From a virus, in the UHGV virus genome UHGV-0134778: DNA of 64,000 bases; one strand, given 5' to 3'. Below the pieces are notes generated by a model. That model saw only the letters and a program-made list of their open reading frames with translations. It was not told the DNA's origin and did not search any database. Within the stretch, counting starts at the first letter, position 1. Every line of letters starts with the position of its first letter. The position numbers and the translations under genes were made by a program. Of the stretch, positions 8,626 to 19,013 are shown in pieces.

Positions 8626-9024
8626 GTGAAAAATAAACTGTTTAAAGTTACAATGAAAATTCGCGGAGCTTGGAGCGTAAAGCAAGGGCGCATCCCAGAG
8701 TTTGAGAAAGACTTCTACGTAGTCTCCACCTCTGAAGAGGCTGCATGCTGGCAGGCTGGATATGCCTATGCAAGAACCTGGTACGAAGGATACCAGACTG
8801 GAGGCTATGACGGAGAAATTGTCAGCAAGGGTGTGGAAGAAATTAATGTGTTGACAAGTGAAAAAGTTTTTGTTATAGTGCATCCTGATTCTAGAGTGAA
8901 GCATTACTGGAATGCCAGAACAAAAACCTGGACACCGTTTGCAGATTCTGCTACACCGCTTTTAAACCAGAAAGCTCTTGACTCTGCCCCAAGCTATGGG
9001 GTTGTTGAAGAAAAGATAAGCTGA
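8626..9024 (+). CDS. hypothetical protein, paralogue of 10833..11228
   Basis: HPDSRVKHYWNARTKTWTP matches HPHSNIAYYWDVLNNEWTP in 10833..11228; start is GTG. Confidence 0.5.
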   Translation: MKNKLFKVTMKIRGAWSVKQGRIPEFEKDFYVVSTSEEAACWQAGYAYARTWYEGYQTGGYDGEIVSKGVEEINVLTSEKVFVIVHPDSRVKHYWNARTKTWTPFADSATPLLNQKALDSAPSYGVVEEKIS

Positions 9025-9041
9025 AATAGTGGGGTACTTAC

Positions 9042-9332
9042 ATGATGGATTTAGTTTTGGACACTGATAACACCGAATCGTTTAAAAAAGATGGTGTAAT
9101 AAGCATGGACCAACCCTGCCATGCCAAGATTGACTCAAAATGGACCTACAAGTTTGACGGTGAGATCTTCGCAAATGATGAGAAGGTCGTGGATGCTGTA
9201 GCCATTTTAAACGCTTTAGGGTATGACCCTGTGAACTCATTGATCAAGGATCCTGTTGAGTTTGCAGAGTATGTTCGTAAAATGGCAGATCTTGCAGTAG
9301 ATATTTTAAAAACTATCGACGACAAGCTGTAA
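9042..9332 (+). CDS. hypothetical protein
   Basis: 96-aa ORF. Confidence 0.5.
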   Translation: MMDLVLDTDNTESFKKDGVISMDQPCHAKIDSKWTYKFDGEIFANDEKVVDAVAILNALGYDPVNSLIKDPVEFAEYVRKMADLAVDILKTIDDKL

Positions 9333-9338
9333 AAACTG

Positions 9339-9400
9339 TTGACACAACACTTGATCTTTAGTATCATTATTTTCAAAGAGGGTTTGGTTCCCTCTTCTTT
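9339..9400 (+). promoter_or_regulatory. sigma70-type promoter with hairpin at the predicted transcript 5' end (hpf leader)
   Basis: TTGACA (9339-9344), 17 nt, TATCAT (9362-9367); hairpin AGAGGG-TTTGGTT-CCCTCT at 9377-9395 followed by TCTTT, then RBS AAGGAG. Confidence 0.55.
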
Positions 9401-9414
9401 AAAAGGAGCACGTT

Positions 9415-9732
9415 ATGCAGATTGAAATCACTGGCAACGTAGAGATCACTGAAGGTATGGTGTCTTTCATTTCCCACAAAATGTCCAAACTGGAGCGTTT
9501 GCACCCATCTGCCAACTATGCACGTGTGAGTGTAAAAGTTGAAAATGATCACCAGGAAGTTATGGCTTTTATTTTTGACAATTCTGGGAAAGAAGTTATC
9601 GCCAAAGCTAAAGGTAGCGATGCTTACGAGGCAACTGACCGTATGGTGGATGTTGCAGCACGCCAGTTGGCTAAATGCGGTGGAAAGAAAGGTAAGGGAA
9701 AAGGTAAAGTAAAGATTGACTTTTTAGATTAA
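9415..9732 (+). CDS. hpf: ribosome hibernation promoting factor / RaiA (YfiA) family homologue
   Basis: MQIEITGNVEITEGM...VSVKVEN...AKGSDAYEATDRMVDVAARQLAK tracks the recalled E. coli HPF MQLNITGNNVEITEAL...VVLKVEK...AEGQDMYAAIDGLIDKLARQLTK. Lys/Gly-rich tail. Own promoter 9339-9367 and RBS AAGGAG. Confidence 0.7.
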   Translation: MQIEITGNVEITEGMVSFISHKMSKLERLHPSANYARVSVKVENDHQEVMAFIFDNSGKEVIAKAKGSDAYEATDRMVDVAARQLAKCGGKKGKGKGKVKIDFLD

Positions 9733-12913: not shown

Positions 12914-13054
12914 ATGACTGATTTTACTGAAGCTTTAATGATGGCCTTATCTGTTTTAGCGCTATCGGTGTGTTTTGGGGCGTTATTCACATCTCTGGTT
13001 AAAGTTTTACATACCATATTCTCACCCAAGGAGCACAGTAATGACGAAGATTGA
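12914..13054 (+). CDS. micro-protein, hydrophobic (46 aa)
   Basis: ATG 12914 after AGAGGTGAGG; MMALSVLALSVCFGALF is a membrane segment. Confidence 0.3.
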   Translation: MTDFTEALMMALSVLALSVCFGALFTSLVKVLHTIFSPKEHSNDED

Positions 13055-13292
13055 CTTAAATGCTGGCGACCATGTTGTTGTCAAATGCATCGGGGATTAT
13101 CTTGGATTCACAATCGGCAATACTTACGAGGCAGTGGTGGCGAAGGTTTATCATGATAAAGTCCTTAGCCTTGTATTTGACTGTGATGATGACGGAGATG
13201 ACCGCTACGTCTGTGAGGTGCTGGCACGTGACGATAGTGAAGACCAGAAATTCCTGGTTATCGAACTGAACGGTATTTTTGTAGAACGTTAA
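13041..13292 (+). CDS. hypothetical acidic protein
   Basis: ATG 13041 after AAGGAG. The track ORF from 12975 has no RBS and overlaps the micro-ORF. Confidence 0.45.
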   Translation: MTKIDLNAGDHVVVKCIGDYLGFTIGNTYEAVVAKVYHDKVLSLVFDCDDDGDDRYVCEVLARDDSEDQKFLVIELNGIFVER

Positions 13293-13320
13293 TTTAAAAC
13301 AATATAAGGAGACTCTTACT

Positions 13321-13626
13321 ATGGCTAAATCTAAAGTTGAACTGTTCACCTCTCTGCCTTCTGACACTGCAGAGCGTGATCGCCTCCGTAAAACAATTGA
13401 AGAGCTGGTGGAACTTCAGCTTCAGATTAAAGATCTGAAAGACGCTATCAAGGATATTATTCTTGTAGAGAAACAGGATCACCTGTATTCTCCTAAGTTT
13501 ATCAAGTCATTGGTGGCTACCGAATTCGATATCCGCTATGAAGCTGAAAAACGTCGAGCTAAAATCGAAGAAGAGGTTGAGCACATGTCTGAAGCAGACA
13601 TTCTGTTCAAACGCTCTGCAGAATAA
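13321..13626 (+). CDS. hypothetical coiled-coil protein
   Basis: 101 aa, charged heptad-like sequence; RBS AAGGAGA; strong terminator follows at 13633-13660. Confidence 0.5.
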   Translation: MAKSKVELFTSLPSDTAERDRLRKTIEELVELQLQIKDLKDAIKDIILVEKQDHLYSPKFIKSLVATEFDIRYEAEKRRAKIEEEVEHMSEADILFKRSAE

Positions 13627-13632
13627 CAACGA

Positions 13633-13660
13633 AGAGGGGTCTTGGCCCCTCTTTTTTACT
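13633..13660 (+). terminator. intrinsic terminator
   Basis: AGAGGGG-TCTTGG-CCCCTCT followed by TTTTTT. Confidence 0.7.
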
Positions 13661-13680
13661 ATCTATGAAGGAGATTAGAG

Positions 13681-14007
13681 ATGCTAATGCCGATTACTGT
13701 AAAAGAACTAAATGAACGTGATGCAGGAGGCCTGTGGCCTGCACGGAAAATACGCTGCGTTTATATGAAAGAGAATCTTGAACACCTTGATCAACAGATT
13801 GCGGTTGGCGATATTTTCGAAGTTCTCTATTCTAATCGTCGCAACTGGGAAACCATTCAACCTTCCGGTTTTGTTCTTGCCAGACTTGATACCGGAGAAG
13901 TGATTATCCCTGGGCTGGATATTGTCTTCGAAATTATCCAGGAGTGGGATCCTGATAAGATTAAATATGAAGAGTTATTCGGTGAAGGTATTATCAGGCC
14001 TGTATGA
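13681..14007 (+). CDS. hypothetical protein
   Basis: 108 aa; RBS GAAGGAG. Confidence 0.5.
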   Translation: MLMPITVKELNERDAGGLWPARKIRCVYMKENLEHLDQQIAVGDIFEVLYSNRRNWETIQPSGFVLARLDTGEVIIPGLDIVFEIIQEWDPDKIKYEELFGEGIIRPV

Positions 14008-14315
14008 GGTGGATTATGTCTACAACGACAGCTAAATACTCCTATATGCCAGCAACCTCGGCAGAAATAGACTTCAGTTTTGATGTGTTTCCATTGTTTG
14101 AGGTGGTTCTGGCATACCCAACAATACTATCTACTCCTGAATCCCTTGTACCTGTTAAGTTGCAGAACGCTATGCATTCCATGCATTACAACAATAAATG
14201 TAGGCACAGATGGTGTCAAGACGAGGAAAAAGATCTGGAGAGTTTGAAAGATTTTGACAGTCACCTTTTGACACCTTTTAGTTACTCAAACCTAGACAAG
14301 CCTTCATGGGTATAG
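14004..14315 (+). CDS. hypothetical protein
   Basis: 103 aa; ATGA overlap; terminator at 14340-14368 follows. Confidence 0.5.
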   Translation: MRWIMSTTTAKYSYMPATSAEIDFSFDVFPLFEVVLAYPTILSTPESLVPVKLQNAMHSMHYNNKCRHRWCQDEEKDLESLKDFDSHLLTPFSYSNLDKPSWV

Positions 14316-14339
14316 CAAAATATCAAATTTAAGGCACAT

Positions 14340-14368
14340 AGGACGCTATGTGGCGTCCTTTTCTTTAT
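14340..14368 (+). terminator. intrinsic terminator
   Basis: AGGACGC-TATGTG-GCGTCCT followed by TTTCTTTAT. Confidence 0.65.
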
Positions 14369-14528
14369 CTGGTGCACGATTCCATACCTTAAGCAGTTAA
14401 TCTCATTACAGAGCGTTTAAAGGCGGCTTACAAGCAACTCTCTATTTCGAGCGTAGCGAGAACGCACGTCCGTTTTGACCCAAATCACCATACGCTCGGA
14501 TTTTAACCAAACCCTCGCGGCGTTTCTG

Positions 14529-14557
14529 TTGACACATTACCGCTCCAGTGATAATAT
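14529..14557 (+). promoter_or_regulatory. sigma70-type promoter
   Basis: TTGACA (14529-14534), 17 nt, TAATAT (14552-14557). Confidence 0.5.
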
Positions 14558-14577
14558 CCACACATCATTTGGAGAAT

Positions 14578-14679
14578 ATGGGATACACAATGAAAACATT
14601 GTCAGAGGTTTTGGTGGTGATCCTGATGATCATTACGTCCATAGTGGCTGTTGCCGGAATACTCACGGGTGGAACATGA
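14578..14679 (+). CDS. micro-protein, hydrophobic (33 aa)
   Basis: ATG 14578 is 21 nt after the -10 of promoter 14529-14557 and preceded by GGAG; VLVVILMIITSIVAVAGIL is transmembrane-like. Confidence 0.3.
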   Translation: MGYTMKTLSEVLVVILMIITSIVAVAGILTGGT

Positions 14680-15009
14680 TAAACACACATGCATCTGAAG
14701 AGACATCCAAAGGAGTGACTATATGTCCCTTGGCTGAGCCAGTGAAAGAGGAAAACTTAGATTCTGAAGATTCTCCATCTTCGCTCCAGGTAGATCCTGA
14801 GGCTGATGACCTAACGTGGGAAGACATCGTAGACATCTGGTTCTCCATTATGCCTGAGCACGAAGAGTTCAGAGGTGGCAGACTATGAAGCACCGAGCCC
14901 ACACAGGTTCCTCATGCTAAAGCATGGCCTGAAGAGGCAAACGTGCATAATTCCTGTGCATTGGAACGTATAAAACCCTGTTCACACTCTCATTTCTAGA
15001 GGAGATTTC

Positions 15010-15225
15010 ATGAAGATAGAAATATTTGGTGGAGCTGACAACACTTGTGGCCTGATTTACCTCGAATTCGATGAATCGTACCTGCCAGAAGTGTTAAACA
15101 TGGATTCTGTTGCTGAGGCTTTGGGAGTAAGTCCTAAAGATCTCTACTCTGGTGCTGAGATTGATGGTTGGGAGGAGACCATGAACATCGATTTCAGTGA
15201 AGTAGGTGATGAACCGCTGGACTGA
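15010..15225 (+). CDS. small acidic protein
   Basis: 71 aa, MKIEIFGG...; RBS AGGAG. Last gene of the rightward block. Confidence 0.5.
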   Translation: MKIEIFGGADNTCGLIYLEFDESYLPEVLNMDSVAEALGVSPKDLYSGAEIDGWEETMNIDFSEVGDEPLD

Positions 15226-15350
15226 CACACAATTAGTTGCCCGGCTAAAGTGCTGGAAGCACCCATAACATCTTCCAACTAAATTTCCTACCAACACAGT
15301 TACTTACCCACCACACATGACTGTTTGCTTGTTTAGTGAGCAGTCATCCC

Positions 15351-15378
15351 TTGACATTCTTGCCTATCTTGATAAAAT
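15351..15378 (+). promoter_or_regulatory. sigma70-type promoter reading into non-coding DNA
   Basis: TTGACA (15351-15356), 16 nt, TAAAAT (15373-15378); no ORF with an RBS in the next ~300 nt. Confidence 0.45.
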
Positions 15379-16671
15379 TAAGTTCTTCTCTTTTCTTTTA
15401 CCGAGTAATTCGGGTTTTCTGTTCTCTTCGGTTTGAAGGGGTATGGAGATACACCTGAGTGAACAGGGTGAACAACCGAACCTTTAGCTATGGCATTAGC
15501 ATGGCGAAGCGGACGGGTGACGAAAGAGGGGCCGGAGGACACCAGTCACTGCCATATAGTATATGGGTGATAACCTGAAGAGTCTGAATAAGTGTTTAAG
15601 TACCAGTCAGAGGAAAAGGTGAATGGTAGCCGAAGGGGGAGGGGGGTTTCTTATATCTTTAATTTGTATACTTTATATACACTTGTAAACCAATTCAATT
15701 AGGATCTGTTTACCACACAAAGTGGATGGAGACAAATATCACCTATTAAACTTGAATTATTTATAGAAAATACCACAACACTACTTAAGTCTTTGATTTT
15801 ACACACAAATCCTACAGATACTCACCCTCCATATTTAACATACTTGTAACATATCCCATACTCTACCTGTCTGATCAATTTACCCAACTACATCCCCATA
15901 TTTTTCCTGTCTGTACTACCCCTGCCCCGCCGGGAGTCCCGTCATATCTGGCTTCCCAGCAAATATCACACCCACAAATATCATTGCCTGAAGAGGGTTT
16001 CATCCCATAATACACACCTTGCCTGAAGAGCGATTCATACACCAACTAAATTTTTTAATTGACCCCTCCCCGCCGCCGGAGAGGTTGGCTTTTCCCACAC
16101 AGGCCTGAAGAGTCAGCCAGAAATATCTGAACAGGCCCAGTTATACCACGATTTTGACATGACCGACAGGAGTGCTACCCTGTCAGGAGCCGGTAGCGAC
16201 TGGAGTGCTGCCAGGCGGACGAAATGGGAATACTTCTCATTCTTATAACAATTCTCAAATATCGAGGCAGTGAGGCAAATTAATAGGTGAGGCCGTTCAC
16301 ACAGTGGCACAACATTTGCAACCTATCTTGTGGGGTGAATGAGAATACCTATCATTGTGAGAATAGTTATCATTACGGGCAATTTAACATAATACCCATT
16401 ATGCGCACCACTGGCGATACATACAGGGATTGATAACATGGGTTACTGTTTACGCACATAACAATTATATTTCTTACTATTTGTGCGGGATATAGTTAGC
16501 AACCAATAGATTAGATATTGACCTGCGGACTTCTGACCGTCCAGACGTCTAAACGCCCACACAACAAGGGTTATACATACATTCCTGAATGTAAACAGGG
16601 CCGCAAAAATGCTACCATACCAGTTTGTAAATTTTTCATGCAGCACTTGACAAAGAGGAGAAAAACTTGTC

Positions 16672-16720
16672 TGACACTTTTGCCACTTTTGACACTTTTA
16701 CCTTTGACACAATATGACAC
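16672..16720. repeat. cluster of four TGACAC boxes
   Basis: TGACAC at 16672, 16690, 16705 and 16715, embedded in repeated CACTTTTGACAC words. Confidence 0.5.
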
Positions 16721-16750
16721 AATAACGGCTGTTACTATTCCATATCTCAC

Positions 16751-16805
16751 TGTTTACGCATAGACTGTTTACGCCTGAATAGTTTACGCCCAAACTGTTT
16801 ACACA
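16751..16805. repeat. four iteron-like direct repeats (C/A)TGTTTAC(G/A)C at 14-16 bp spacing
   Basis: TGTTTACGC at 16751 and 16767, AGTTTACGC at 16781, TGTTTACAC at 16797. Further copies of CTGTTTACG at 16446 and 17267, and inverted at about 16590. Confidence 0.6.
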
Positions 16806-16815
16806 GAGATGATGA

Positions 16816-17109
16816 GCCATGCCATTCGTTTGCATGAAAACAATTAACAAGATAACAATTAACAAGTTAATAATCTTTCGCTGGCTATGCCAGGTGACTA
16901 GGTCACCCCTTCGGGCGTTTATATGACATAATATAAAAGCAGGGCAACTATTAGAAGATCTATAGTTGCCTTGCTTGTTATGTCATGATTAACTAAATAC
17001 AAGGCAACTATGATCTGAGTAATAGATTGCAGAAAAACTATCACGGGGGTGATGGTTACTGCTTTTATATTATGTCGCGACTCCGTCGCGCCATGCCATT
17101 CGTTTGCAT
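16816..17109. repeat. 20-bp direct repeat pair flanking a nested inverted-repeat structure
   Basis: GCCATGCCATTCGTTTGCAT at 16816-16835 and 17090-17109. Inside: 18-bp perfect inverted repeat GACATAATATAAAAGCAG (16926-16943 / 17059-17076) and four copies of GGCAACTAT/ATAGTTGCC. Confidence 0.65.
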
Positions 17110-17722
17110 AGTTGCCTTATTGTTACAGGTAAAATAATTACATTATTAATTATTTCTTATCTTTCTCTTAGTCATCTAATGATTCCAGTCAGTATAGTAA
17201 TGTACAGTAAACATTAGACGACTAAAGATTTCTCTGTTTATGATAACTCATCGTGATAATTTCGGGCTGTTTACGAAAAATGTTGACACCTGAGCTGATT
17301 TATGTTATGCAGTCTACACGAATAATTATTTTATGCAGGTATTGACTATTCCGTTATTCTGTGGTTGGAATAAATACTTTGCAGGCTATAGAATGGCGTG
17401 CGTACGTGAATTCTGAGATCTGGCGGCTATAGTTATACTCGATTTTTCGCGTAGAACACGCTTTAGATGCTGTGTAAGTGTATGACTTATAAAGATTTTT
17501 AGTTGTTGACAAGATATTGGAGATGTGCATCAGGTTAAAATTTGTGCAATAGCGGCATTACGTGCACTTTTGGGAGAGAAAACGGGTAAAAATGGACTTG
17601 CTACCACACAATGAAAAATTATGCAATAGTTATTTTCCATGTATATTTGTACAGTATGTGGGATTGATGGCTAGTCAATTATTCCACTTGCCAGGTAGGG
17701 CCGTTTATGGTAGGAGAAGAGC

Positions 17723-17750
17723 AGACAAAAAGAAAGGGGCCTAAGCCCCT
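17723..17750 (-). terminator. intrinsic terminator closing the leftward gene block
   Basis: Minus strand AGGGGC-TTAG-GCCCCT followed by TTCTTTTTGTCT; lies 20 nt past the stop of 17770..18189. Confidence 0.7.
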
Positions 17751-17769
17751 TGATAATTCAGTTAAAAAA

Positions 17770-18189
17770 TTATAATGATTCGTATATTTCAAAAATCCGA
17801 TTTGCCAGGTCGTTACGGTAGCTGAATTTTTCCTCACGTTTGATCATAAGATCTTTATAGCCGTACTCTTTAAGCACTTCATTAACTTTATGGCGGCATA
17901 CTTTCATATTATCCTGCGCGTCACCAATAAATCTGTTGCTATGGTGCATGGCTTTAATTTCTTCTTCCAGGACCAGGGCAACTATGCGGACCGGATCAAG
18001 CTGATAGGCGGTAACATCCATGCGGCATTGTAAACGGCTTTTTACGTCTGCCACCGGATATACTGCAACCTCTTCCCCGTCAACATTGACAATAATTAGT
18101 TTACCATCGATTTCGAATCCTTTCGCCGCCGGACCGTGACAAAAAGCGTTATCAAAGCTATATGCCGGATTATTAGATTTAATGTTCAT
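17770..18189 (-). CDS. hypothetical protein
   Basis: 139 aa. First gene upstream of the minus-strand terminator at 17723-17750; promoter 18239-18267 and RBS AAGAGG upstream. Confidence 0.55.
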   Translation of the reverse strand: MNIKSNNPAYSFDNAFCHGPAAKGFEIDGKLIIVNVDGEEVAVYPVADVKSRLQCRMDVTAYQLDPVRIVALVLEEEIKAMHHSNRFIGDAQDNMKVCRHKVNEVLKEYGYKDLMIKREEKFSYRNDLANRIFEIYESL

Positions 18190-18238
18190 GGTGTTTTTAC
18201 CTCTTAGTTAATTTTCTTACAACTTCCCTTCAAAAAAG

Positions 18239-18267
18239 AATATAGCAAAACTGCCGATCCCTGTCAA
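18239..18267 (-). promoter_or_regulatory. sigma70-type promoter
   Basis: Minus strand TTGACA (plus 18262-18267), 17 nt, TATATT (plus 18239-18244). Confidence 0.55.
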
Positions 18268-18333
18268 CCAGGGATAGCGTAATTTTTATGTGATCAAGGG
18301 GCTTTATTGCCCCTGACCATGTAACTTGTTGTA

Positions 18334-18597
18334 TTATTTGTTGCTCATCCAGTTTTCCCAAGCTGCCTGATAATCTGCCTCACTACGGCGGATCTCTTCT
18401 TGCTCTTCAAGGCGGATCTCTTCTTCCAGGTACCCCAAGATGTCAGCCTTTTTAGTCTGGCGTAGCATCCAGTCATCTTTTTTGCGAGTGAAGATCTTAT
18501 AAGCTTTCTCGCAAACCTCTTTTTTGCTACCTTTCTGGACTTCAAGAACACGATAAGCCATATATTGAACTAATTTGAGCTGATCAAGACGTTTCAT
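18334..18597 (-). CDS. hypothetical protein
   Basis: 87 aa; leader contains hairpin GGGCCAAAAGGCCC and RBS AAAGAGG. Confidence 0.5.
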   Translation of the reverse strand: MKRLDQLKLVQYMAYRVLEVQKGSKKEVCEKAYKIFTRKKDDWMLRQTKKADILGYLEEEIRLEEQEEIRRSEADYQAAWENWMSNK

Positions 18598-18657
18598 GAT
18601 GTTTACCTCTTTGTGCGGTTCTGATTAGTGGGCCTTTTGGCCCGTGTCATTATCTTA

Positions 18658-18930
18658 TTACTTATGGCGGCAGAATTCAAGCGTTTTTAATTGATAATCT
18701 TCCTCAGCTTGGAGTACGACCGCCTCGATCATTTCGTTGGCATTGTTAAAGCCATAACCTTTAGCGAACTCATCCGCGCCACCTTCGTGATCATGTTCTG
18801 CGTTCATCGCTTCCACAAAATGGAATTCCAAATTGTTGAGGTAGGGGCTTGATGTTCCGTCCTCTTTTTCGATGAGATCCCAAATAGCATTAAAACGTGA
18901 TTCGACTTCTTGATTAATCCAGCTTGACAT
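18658..18930 (-). CDS. hypothetical acidic protein
   Basis: 90 aa; promoter 18985-19013, leader hairpin, RBS AGGAGAGAGG. Confidence 0.5.
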   Translation of the reverse strand: MSSWINQEVESRFNAIWDLIEKEDGTSSPYLNNLEFHFVEAMNAEHDHEGGADEFAKGYGFNNANEMIEAVVLQAEEDYQLKTLEFCRHK

Positions 18931-18984
18931 AGTGTTTTCCTCTCTCCTGGTTGTTGTGTGGGCACTTTTGCCCCTTCAAGATAA

Positions 18985-19013
18985 ATGTTACCTCACCCCA
19001 TGGCAGATGTCAA
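18985..19013 (-). promoter_or_regulatory. sigma70-type promoter
   Basis: Minus strand TTGACA (19008-19013), 17 nt, TAACAT (18985-18990). Confidence 0.45.

Follow-up and report, generated by a model that had tools for sequence, protein, structure and literature searches.

A stretch of 64,000 nucleotides from the virus genome UHGV-0134778 (the window) carries on its + strand a conserved promoter followed by a structured RNA core of 266 nt (15385-15650), which was delimited by a covariance model (R1), a conservation profile, and pair counts. Our preferred but tentative reading is that 15351-15650 may well be an autonomous gene whose product, a structured non-coding RNA of about 260 nt, acts in trans via a protein partner. 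Judged by nucleotide identity, the window is a Vequintavirus genome, that of an rV5-like Escherichia coli myophage. The 2.6 kb around the element were mostly 90-95% (at most 96%) identical to 122 phage records, nearly all of them Escherichia phages of the genus Vequintavirus and including rV5, FV3, and several K-12 isolates. The initial annotation had proposed that the promoter at 15351 drives a non-coding RNA that is not a tRNA, and this proposal gained support from conservation, the lack of an open reading frame (ORF), substitutions at unpaired positions, compensatory changes, and G-U pairs on the + strand. The element has the marks of a structured non-coding RNA gene, namely its own promoter, no conserved ORF, a secondary structure kept through compensatory changes, and strand specificity. 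By sequence comparison, the RNA belongs to no described family and is a new one within the known kind of phage structured non-coding RNAs, the catalogue of candidate viral RNAs (PMC10690425) lying outside this comparison.

Conservation, promoter, and coding capacity

When eight vequintavirus genomes were aligned, identity across 15400-15649 was 96.5-99.8% per 50 nt, making this the most conserved part of the compared region (14400-18200), above the flanking protein genes. Just outside, identity was 86-87% upstream of the promoter and 81-85% downstream of 15650. The element together with its promoter (15330-15700) was 95-100% identical in 119 phage records, versus mostly 90-95% for the intergenic gap in which it lies, and in LL12 and L028 similarity broke directly after the G tract that ends the element. 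These edges therefore delimit a module of about 300 bp, made up of the promoter and 15385-15650. We infer a 5' end near 15385 from promoter geometry and a 3' end near 15650 from the conservation boundary. Scanning viral and metagenome collections for the most conserved 20-mer recovered the vequintaviruses and, in addition, more distant copies. They are carried by uncultured contigs of 121-140 kb, here termed clade B, and were about 76% identical to the window over the best-aligned 118 nt, the remaining element not being alignable by BLAST. Clade B keeps the promoter, the 5' pyrimidine tract, the segments CUGAGUGAACAGnGUGAAC and GUUUAAGUACCAG, and a 3' G6UAG5 tract.

The promoter that had been annotated as TTGACA-N16-TAAAAT at 15351-15378 was borne out by the promoter scan, and its register was kept in both clades. 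It comprises a -35 hexamer TTGACA (15351-15356), a spacer of 16 nt, and an extended -10 element TGaTAAAAT (15370-15378), with the TG at 15370-15371 and the hexamer TAAAAT at 15373-15378. The clade B equivalents are TTGCAA and TGcTATAAT, arranged as TTGCAA-17-TGnTATAAT, and in both clades the -10 hexamer ends 6 nt before the CTTCTCT with which the element starts. With 11 of 12 consensus positions matched, the site was tied for the best in 13000-19000. Promoter-like sites in that region were not above chance, however (18 found versus 14.6 expected), so the consensus match by itself proves little, and the promoter matters because it is conserved between the clades.

The annotation had also described the downstream sequence as G-rich, free of ORFs longer than about 26 codons, and free of a Shine-Dalgarno site. 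The first point was confirmed, with a GC skew of +0.27 to +0.32 over 15400-15699 and G at 24-37% versus C at 9-21%. The second was correct for ATG starts (15490-15570) but not for GTG starts, which open a frame of 39 aa (15459-15578). No + strand frame contained in the flagged interval is longer, whatever its start codon, and a GTG frame of 40 aa (15336-15458) begins upstream of the promoter. The third was slightly too strong, in that GAGGAA (15609-15614) stands 8 nt before an ATG at 15623 that opens a frame of 21 codons. That ATG is absent in clade B, and neither the Shine-Dalgarno-like sequence nor the frame is conserved. The clades shared no ORF, and the indels between them were not multiples of three. 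The possibility that the element encodes a small protein was rejected because its ORFs are not conserved.

Comparative structure model and its tests

A structure model was first drawn by eye from the comparison of the two clades and then tested. In the model, the RNA is closed by P1, in which the 5' pyrimidine tract CUUCUCUUUUCUUUU (15385-15399) pairs with the 3' G5AG6 tract GAAGGGGGAGGGGGG (15632-15646), whose G-run length varies between isolates. All 15 pairs form in the window, 8 of them as G-U wobbles, and 10-11 of 12 form in clade B. In the pair counts, P1 (helices 1-2) was 91-98% paired and its variation was mostly one-sided. That P1 closes the molecule and shields both of its ends is plausible, not proven. 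The hairpin P2 (CCGAG-UAA-UUCGG, 15401-15413) was picked up by the terminator scan, the pair counts, and RNAalifold. It was 100% paired, reads CCAGAA-UACGC-UUCUGG in clade B with one pair changed on both sides, and was flagged as terminator-like together with the U-rich run that follows it. Px, formed by UUUUCU (15415-15420) and GGAAAA (15612-15617), closes a multi-helix junction and was seen in both the pair counts and RNAalifold. It was 96.8% paired, with one pair changed from U-A to G-C (clade B GUUUCUC / GGGAGAC). Both of its strands are of low complexity, and we have moderate confidence that this helix is real.

By comparison of the clades, Px is shown in the model to enclose three domains: P3-P4 with the loop L1, a variable domain with P5 and P7, and P6, which presents the loop L2. 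P3 pairs UUCGGUU (15427-15433) with AACCGAA (15474-15480); all 7 pairs form in both clades according to the pair counts, one of them by a compensatory change of U-A to A-U (clade B UUCGGAU / AUCCGAA). P4 (GUAU-GGAG-AUAC, 15441-15452), found by the pair counts and by RNAalifold, was 100% paired although three of its four pairs change on both sides (clade B GAUA-GGGGAA-UAUC). L1 (CUGAGUGAACAGgGUGAAC, 19 nt, 15455-15473), defined by comparing the two clades, contains two copies of GUGAACA 9 nt apart and a possible mini-hairpin of 3 bp (CUG/CAG), and is identical in all copies of both clades except for one position (G or C). P5, supported by the same two methods as P4, pairs UAUGGC (15489-15494) with GCCAUA (15551-15556) and was 100% paired, with a G-C changed to C-G and a U-A to U-G between the clades (clade B UAUCGC / GCGAUG). 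The tentative P7 (15516-15550) pairs GGUGAC (15516-15521) with GUCACU (15545-15550) and encloses a variable loop. In a hand alignment all 6 pairs form in both clades (clade B GGUUGG/CCAACU), whereas the model-guided alignment places clade B differently, with 92.8% paired. The clade B sequence also permits the register GGUUGG/CCAGCC.

P6 (15583-15611), a stem of UCUGA and UCAGA around a loop of 19 nt, was found by pair counts, RNAalifold, and the minimum-energy fold. In clade B an unrelated stem, CAAUAGCG/CGCUGUUG, occupies the same place, so that all five pairs change on both sides and yet the helix is 100% paired; within clade B, two positions additionally show independent changes of G-C to A-U together with a G-U intermediate. 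L2 (GUUUAAGUACCAG, 13 nt, 15594-15606) abuts the 3' arm of P6 and is identical in all copies of both clades. The segments CUGAGUGAACAGnGUGAAC and GUUUAAGUACCAG are both single-stranded in the model. Local pairing had been proposed from the sequence, for example in GGTGAACAACCGAACC. The model assigns part of this example to an invariant single strand and part to the 3' arm of P3, and it forms no local hairpin.

R1 was built from eight vequintavirus copies and the proposed structure. It matched all copies, the vequintaviruses with 309-350 bits (window, 15385-15650, 346 bits) and clade B with 51-82 bits. Pairs were then counted in an R1-guided alignment of 22 sequences, with the 3' partners slid by 1-3 columns serving as the control. 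Standard pairs were found in 97.5% of cells versus 47-52% after sliding, and 16 of the 57 pairs change on both sides versus 0-2 in the control. The covariation score was 0.210, compared with 0.02-0.06 for the slid pairs and 0.10 after shuffling, and none of 500 shuffles reached it. Structure prediction with covariation from homologous phages, which the annotation had called for, was thereby carried out with a positive outcome. Without being given the proposed structure, RNAalifold recovered P2, Px, P4, P5, and P6 from the same model-guided alignment. Further evidence came from 12 distinct vequintavirus variants, in which all 12 substitution sites fell at positions unpaired in the model; with 57% of positions unpaired, the chance of this for randomly placed sites is about 0.001.

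The minimum-energy fold of the window failed on the same alignment as a candidate for the real structure, as it was 88% paired with a score of 0.082 and hence worse than the comparative model. Every clade B copy breaks its long pyrimidine-purine hairpin as well as its local hairpin at 15545-15570, a competitor of P5, and in the 5' half it and the comparative fold are mutually exclusive. The z-score of folding was -1.4 for the + strand and -0.3 for the - strand. Since the minimum-energy fold is unexceptional, the evidence for structure is comparative and not thermodynamic. Many of the model's pairs are G-U. On the - strand these would turn into A-C mismatches, and in DNA they would be weak G-T pairs. 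Given these pairs and the promoter at the 5' edge, an RNA made from the + strand would be by far the simplest reading.

A scan with the covariance models of Rfam, likewise proposed in the annotation, returned nothing at gathering thresholds or at permissive E-values, whether for the window, the intergenic gap, or the element by itself in either clade. None of the 4227 models of Rfam 15 (including 6S, tmRNA, RNase P, pRNA, ribozymes, riboswitches, and GOLLD/ROOL) had a hit in the whole window. With the element alone and E <= 10, the best scores were 9.8-12.9 bits versus thresholds of 45-109, and clade B gave one match of 11.6 bits against a threshold of 45. ARAGORN called no tRNA or tmRNA gene in the window, in agreement with the annotated absence of a tRNA. 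A resemblance of L2 to a tRNA anticodon loop was dismissed, as there is no adjacent stem of 5 bp and no ARAGORN call. A hammerhead (CUGAAGAG ... GAAA) was rejected as well, since it has no Rfam match, the first pair of its stem II would be a G-G mismatch in the window, and five clade B variants lack the segment. No same-strand gene lies downstream between 15650 and 17770 and no class matches, which does not suit a riboswitch or cis-regulatory leader. An Hfq-type small RNA was set aside because only the long-range P1, and no local hairpin, precedes the 3' U-rich stretch; this U run is missing in clade B and in some vequintaviruses.

The distribution of the RNA was narrow. R1 found no match in the loci of Phapecoctavirus, A73, 4MG, PVP-SE1, CR3, a Mydovirus, LTH01, and GAP31. 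The last six of these represent other Vequintavirinae genera and are not syntenic, because the regulator gene used as the anchor lies elsewhere there. The model returned nothing real (best score 14.9 bits) when run over 1.39 Mb of unrelated sequence from viruses and metagenomes, and none of 185,579 genomes of bacteria and archaea contained an exact copy of a signature pattern spanning L1 and P3. Mimicry of a host sequence was rejected because no BLAST-level similarity was found in 5,426 E. coli genomes, a search in which a query of 266 nt would miss short complementary sites. The family looks confined, in the collections searched, to Vequintavirus and clade B.

The genome-terminus region around the putative RNA gene

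The RNA gene lies at the left edge of a gap of 2.5 kb on which the flanking gene blocks converge, with + strand genes ending at 15225 and - strand genes at 17770. We found no convincing ORF in this gap (15225-17770) and no conserved + strand ORF between 15650 and 17770. The equivalent region of the rV5 record (104013-106618) is unannotated, and in the rV5 genome paper the gap was drawn as a grey box labelled "non-coding" (PMC3606486). Terminal redundancies of 458 bp have been reported for the vequintaviruses EdH4 and HdK5 (PMC6563267). In the EdH4 record the first 459 bp equal the last 459 bp, and these map to 16214-16671 of the window, which by homology to EdH4 is the 458-bp direct terminal repeat. 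The physical ends therefore lie inside the "non-coding" gap. A spacer of 564 bp separates the RNA gene from the repeat downstream, and the right end, at which the promoter of the gene points, is about 1 kb away. By our own arithmetic, several related GenBank records start or end at about 16610-16675.

A short motif, CCTGAAGAG, marks this region. Five exact + strand copies are present (14928, 15574, 15987, 16022, and 16104, spanning 14928-16112) where 0.57 would be expected in 64 kb, and CACAC occurs no more than about 30 nt ahead of four of them. Three of the five copies lie between the RNA and the repeat, and the motif recurs in clade B. One copy, found in the exact-copy scan at 15574-15582, lies inside the RNA gene, but a segment of about 25 nt that contains it is absent from five clade B variants. 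The RNA can do without this copy, which is probably a motif that acts in the DNA of the terminus region. As a set, the copies probably bind proteins and belong to the terminus, packaging, or replication region. An assignment of CCTGAAGAG to sigma-32 or to phage middle promoters was rejected, its spacing to -10-like hexamers being inconsistent.

Between the RNA and the repeat lies a block that is conserved with clade B. It includes a hairpin at 15919-15944 (GCCGG...CUGGC; clade B UCCAG...CUGGA, with compensatory change) around an invariant GGAGTCCCGT, which may be a second conserved folded or bound element. The sequence AAATATC, often as CCCACAAATATC, occurs near the left boundary of the repeat (15962, 15976, 16122, and 16256) and also in the loci L006 and L005/L007. 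Vequintaviruses, clade B, A73, and the Phapecoctavirus Schickermooser all have this motif, a candidate for a conserved terminase recognition signal. Right after the right end begins the most variable block, 16650-16950, with 58-81% identity among vequintaviruses. It holds three copies of TGACACTTTTGCC with a period of 9 bp (16672-16702) and four repeats of the GTTTACGC type with a period of 15 bp (16749-16805). Farther on there is a nest of inverted repeats (16925-17125) with perfect arms of 18 nt (16925-16942 / 17059-17076), and a direct repeat of 20 nt connects 16816-16835 with 17090-17109. In the equivalent gap, Schickermooser has a terminal repeat of 328 bp, and in A73 TTGnCCACAGAG recurs about every 21 bp (L006, ~8340-8200, - strand); neither carries the RNA.

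On its upstream side, the RNA gene follows a run of small genes without annotation, which it concludes. The ORF directly upstream (15010-15225) encodes a very acidic protein of 71 aa belonging to PHROG 12108, a family of unknown function. Its distribution is narrow like that of the RNA, with 118 phage records and a clade B homologue in the same place. Just upstream of the -35 hexamer lies a hairpin, ATGACTG...CAGTCAT (15317-15347), whose clade B counterpart ATACCTAC...GTAGGTAT keeps the pairing with a changed sequence, and which probably terminates upstream + strand transcripts. In one clade B contig (L002), a gene antisense to the RNA (8716-9486) encodes an HNH homing endonuclease of 256 aa (PF13392, E = 1.6e-18). 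The insertion lies immediately 3' of the RNA element and parts it from the remaining terminus region, with no apparent loss of either. Among the database records, 19 labelled "Campylobacter phage" (MG0656xx) match the region of E. coli rV5-like phages, those listed with 94-98% identity, and one of them, C14, is marked UNVERIFIED. The Campylobacter host label of these records looks doubtful.

Proposed mode of action, rival explanations, and known systems

If the element is an RNA that acts in trans, host sigma-70 RNA polymerase would initiate about 7 nt past the extended -10 element, near 15385. With a promoter of the host type, no phage factor would be needed and the RNA would therefore be expressed from the start of infection. 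It would fold into the hairpin P2 and the junction helix Px with its three domains, and pairing of the 5' pyrimidine tract with the 3' G5AG6 tract would close the molecule. Transcription would continue into a C-rich, G-poor tract (15749-15930, + strand), recognized by its composition and a putative Rho loading site. We infer termination by Rho there, followed by trimming back to P1. In windows of 78 nt starting at 15749-15853, C made up 23-40% and G 4-8% (C/G 3.6-8.0), and C was also well above G in the downstream sequence of clade B. Between 15413 and 17036 the terminator scan turned up nothing terminator-like on the + strand, and a U-rich stretch follows P1 in some vequintaviruses only. The stable RNA would then act in trans, L1 and L2 forming a recognition surface for a host or phage protein, which the RNA would either sequester or work with jointly. 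A protein-binding RNA fits better than a simple antisense RNA or a primer, because the helices drift freely while the loops are invariant. A protein partner is also favored because no complementary sequence was found: the 64-kb window holds no site complementary to L1 or L2, and L2-like sites were not enriched. As far as the window and the BLAST-level search of E. coli genomes go, an antisense role was rejected, in that GTTCACAC and GTGAACA were also not enriched and clade B does not conserve the UGUUCAC that lies upstream near 14980.

Several observations weigh against a trans-acting, protein-binding RNA. P1, Px, and P7 are weakly supported, since they rest mainly on pyrimidine-purine complementarity or on hand alignment, and in clade B the pairing of the pyrimidine tract with G6UAG5 contains one internal mismatch. 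Pairs were counted on an alignment that had been fitted to the proposed structure, which was itself derived from the same sequences. With only two clades, most compensatory pairs between them amount to one event each. The z-score of -1.4 is unexceptional, and thermodynamics prefers a different, local pyrimidine-purine hairpin. As to a partner, the neighbouring proteins belong to no Pfam family and to PHROG families of unknown function. Our literature search found no description of the RNA and no transcriptome for any vequintavirus. Finally, the position beside the terminus and the G tract suit explanations in which the element acts in cis.

The main rival, an RNA that primes or opens DNA at the terminus, is unlikely. 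The promoter would fire toward the terminal repeat, 0.8 kb off, and the G5AG6 tract of the nascent RNA would form a persistent hybrid on the C-rich template under the control of the folded body, much as in ColE1 RNA II, and would thereby start replication or duplicate the terminal repeat at concatemer junctions. The gene indeed points at the EdH4-type repeat 564 bp away with no ORF downstream, as promoters without a downstream gene do near the ends of T7, and a variable, AT-rich stretch (34% GC over 15600-15799) follows a G tract that, as G5AG6-TTT, resembles human mitochondrial CSBII. In the equivalent region of A73, which is without the RNA, a G5AG5AG5 run (L006, ~7890, - strand) has the same orientation but a non-homologous position. 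A primer, however, would need neither two invariant loops nor at least six maintained helices, and the conserved pyrimidine tract can pair with the G tract in competition with a DNA hybrid. The endonuclease insertion separates the RNA from the terminus at no apparent cost to either, and the authors of the rV5 genome saw skew changes that tracked transcription direction only (PMC3606486). A cofactor of packaging or end processing is very unlikely. It would work in trans, as phi29 pRNA does, in the apparatus by which the concatemer junction is recognised or cut or DNA is packaged. The gene for a structured RNA about 1 kb from a physical genome end, its restriction to clades that share the terminus region, and the self-complementary tetramers UUAA and GUAC of L2, which could support loop-loop multimerisation (suggestive only), would agree with such a role. 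Yet neither pRNA nor any other Rfam family matches, Phapecoctavirus and A73 manage with terminal repeats in the equivalent region and without the RNA, and a constitutive sigma-70 promoter is unlike a late function. We know of no packaging RNA outside phi29-like phages. Taking the primer or R-loop that duplicates the 458-bp repeat and the junction or packaging cofactor as two forms of one idea, we consider it distinctly unlikely that the RNA would be a working part of genome-end biology in this terminase-type myovirus with its short terminal repeats.

It is likewise very improbable that the fold is a leader or switch that controls transcription into the terminus in cis, by attenuation, by a riboswitch-like mechanism, or by transcriptional interference. 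On concatemers, such transcription would cross the junction and run antisense to the leftward genes from 17770. P2 and its U-rich run would provide a terminator-like site about 16 nt into the transcript, the mutually exclusive folds of the 5' half would allow alternative conformers, and the flanking gene blocks do converge on the gap. There is, however, no + strand gene for more than 2 kb downstream, the C-rich, G-poor tract predicts that Rho would stop transcripts well short of the convergent genes, clade B does not conserve the minimum-energy alternative, and no riboswitch class matches. We give still less credence to an element that works as DNA, whether a folded single-stranded signal or a composite protein-binding site of the terminus or packaging region. 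The surroundings are rich in repeats (CCTGAAGAG, AAATATC, the tandem repeats of 9 and 15 bp, and inverted repeats), and one CCTGAAGAG lies inside the element. The helices, however, diverge in sequence with their pairing kept, unlike double-stranded protein sites; many pairs are G-U, weak as G-T and impossible on the other strand; a strong conserved promoter stands exactly at the 5' edge; and clade B dispenses with the CCTGAAGAG segment. An autonomous RNA module is favored because the loops are conserved, this segment is dispensable, and the endonuclease in L002 could insert between the RNA and the terminus.

Phages of the rV5 type are common on E. coli, are used in O157 typing and biocontrol, and are part of the BASEL collection. 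The "non-coding" box has been blank since the rV5 paper; its left edge now appears as a conserved, promoter-driven structured RNA gene and the rest of it as the terminus region. Few phage non-coding RNAs have known roles, and this one is testable, as it is short, its helices and invariant loops are defined, and carrier isolates are available. If the RNA binds a host or phage protein, it could point to a new route of takeover or counter-defence; if it serves the DNA ends, it would add a new class of factor for replication or packaging. To our knowledge, no RNA of such a genome-end kind has been described outside the phi29 group.

The phi29 pRNA gene adjoins the genome end and is read toward it from an early host-type promoter, and the present RNA resembles it in being an ORF-less phage gene for a structured RNA near a physical end, here about 1 kb from the right one. 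The two differ in that there is no match of sequence or structure, and in that the phi29 group uses protein-primed replication and lacks any terminal-repeat junction that would need processing. ColE1 RNA II and the mitochondrial LSP/CSBII system share with it a promoter that fires into non-coding DNA and a G-rich tract for an RNA-DNA hybrid, and RNA II is also a folded RNA whose shape matters. Here, however, the 5' end of the RNA itself is a possible partner for its G tract, the invariant loops and covarying helices exceed what a primer needs, and no antisense regulator of the RNA I type is evident. The T7 promoters phiOL and phiOR likewise lie near an end with short direct terminal repeats, point at the repeat, and have no downstream gene; they are served by a phage polymerase and yield no conserved folded RNA, whereas here the RNA is conserved and not only the promoter. 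Within the Vequintavirinae, the pseudo-ToxI RNA of phiTE acts in trans on the host toxin ToxN (PMC3475682). It is a trans-acting non-coding RNA locus in an rV5-like phage and a precedent for RNA-based counter-defence in the subfamily, but it consists of tandem antitoxin-mimic repeats of 36 nt, unlike the single multi-helix fold of 260 nt found here, which lacks such internal repeats and to which it has no similarity. GOLLD and ROOL (PMC12286853) are phage-carried RNAs of complex fold that are also known from covariation and are of unknown function; they are much larger and have Rfam models, none of which matches here, whereas the distribution of the present RNA is very narrow.

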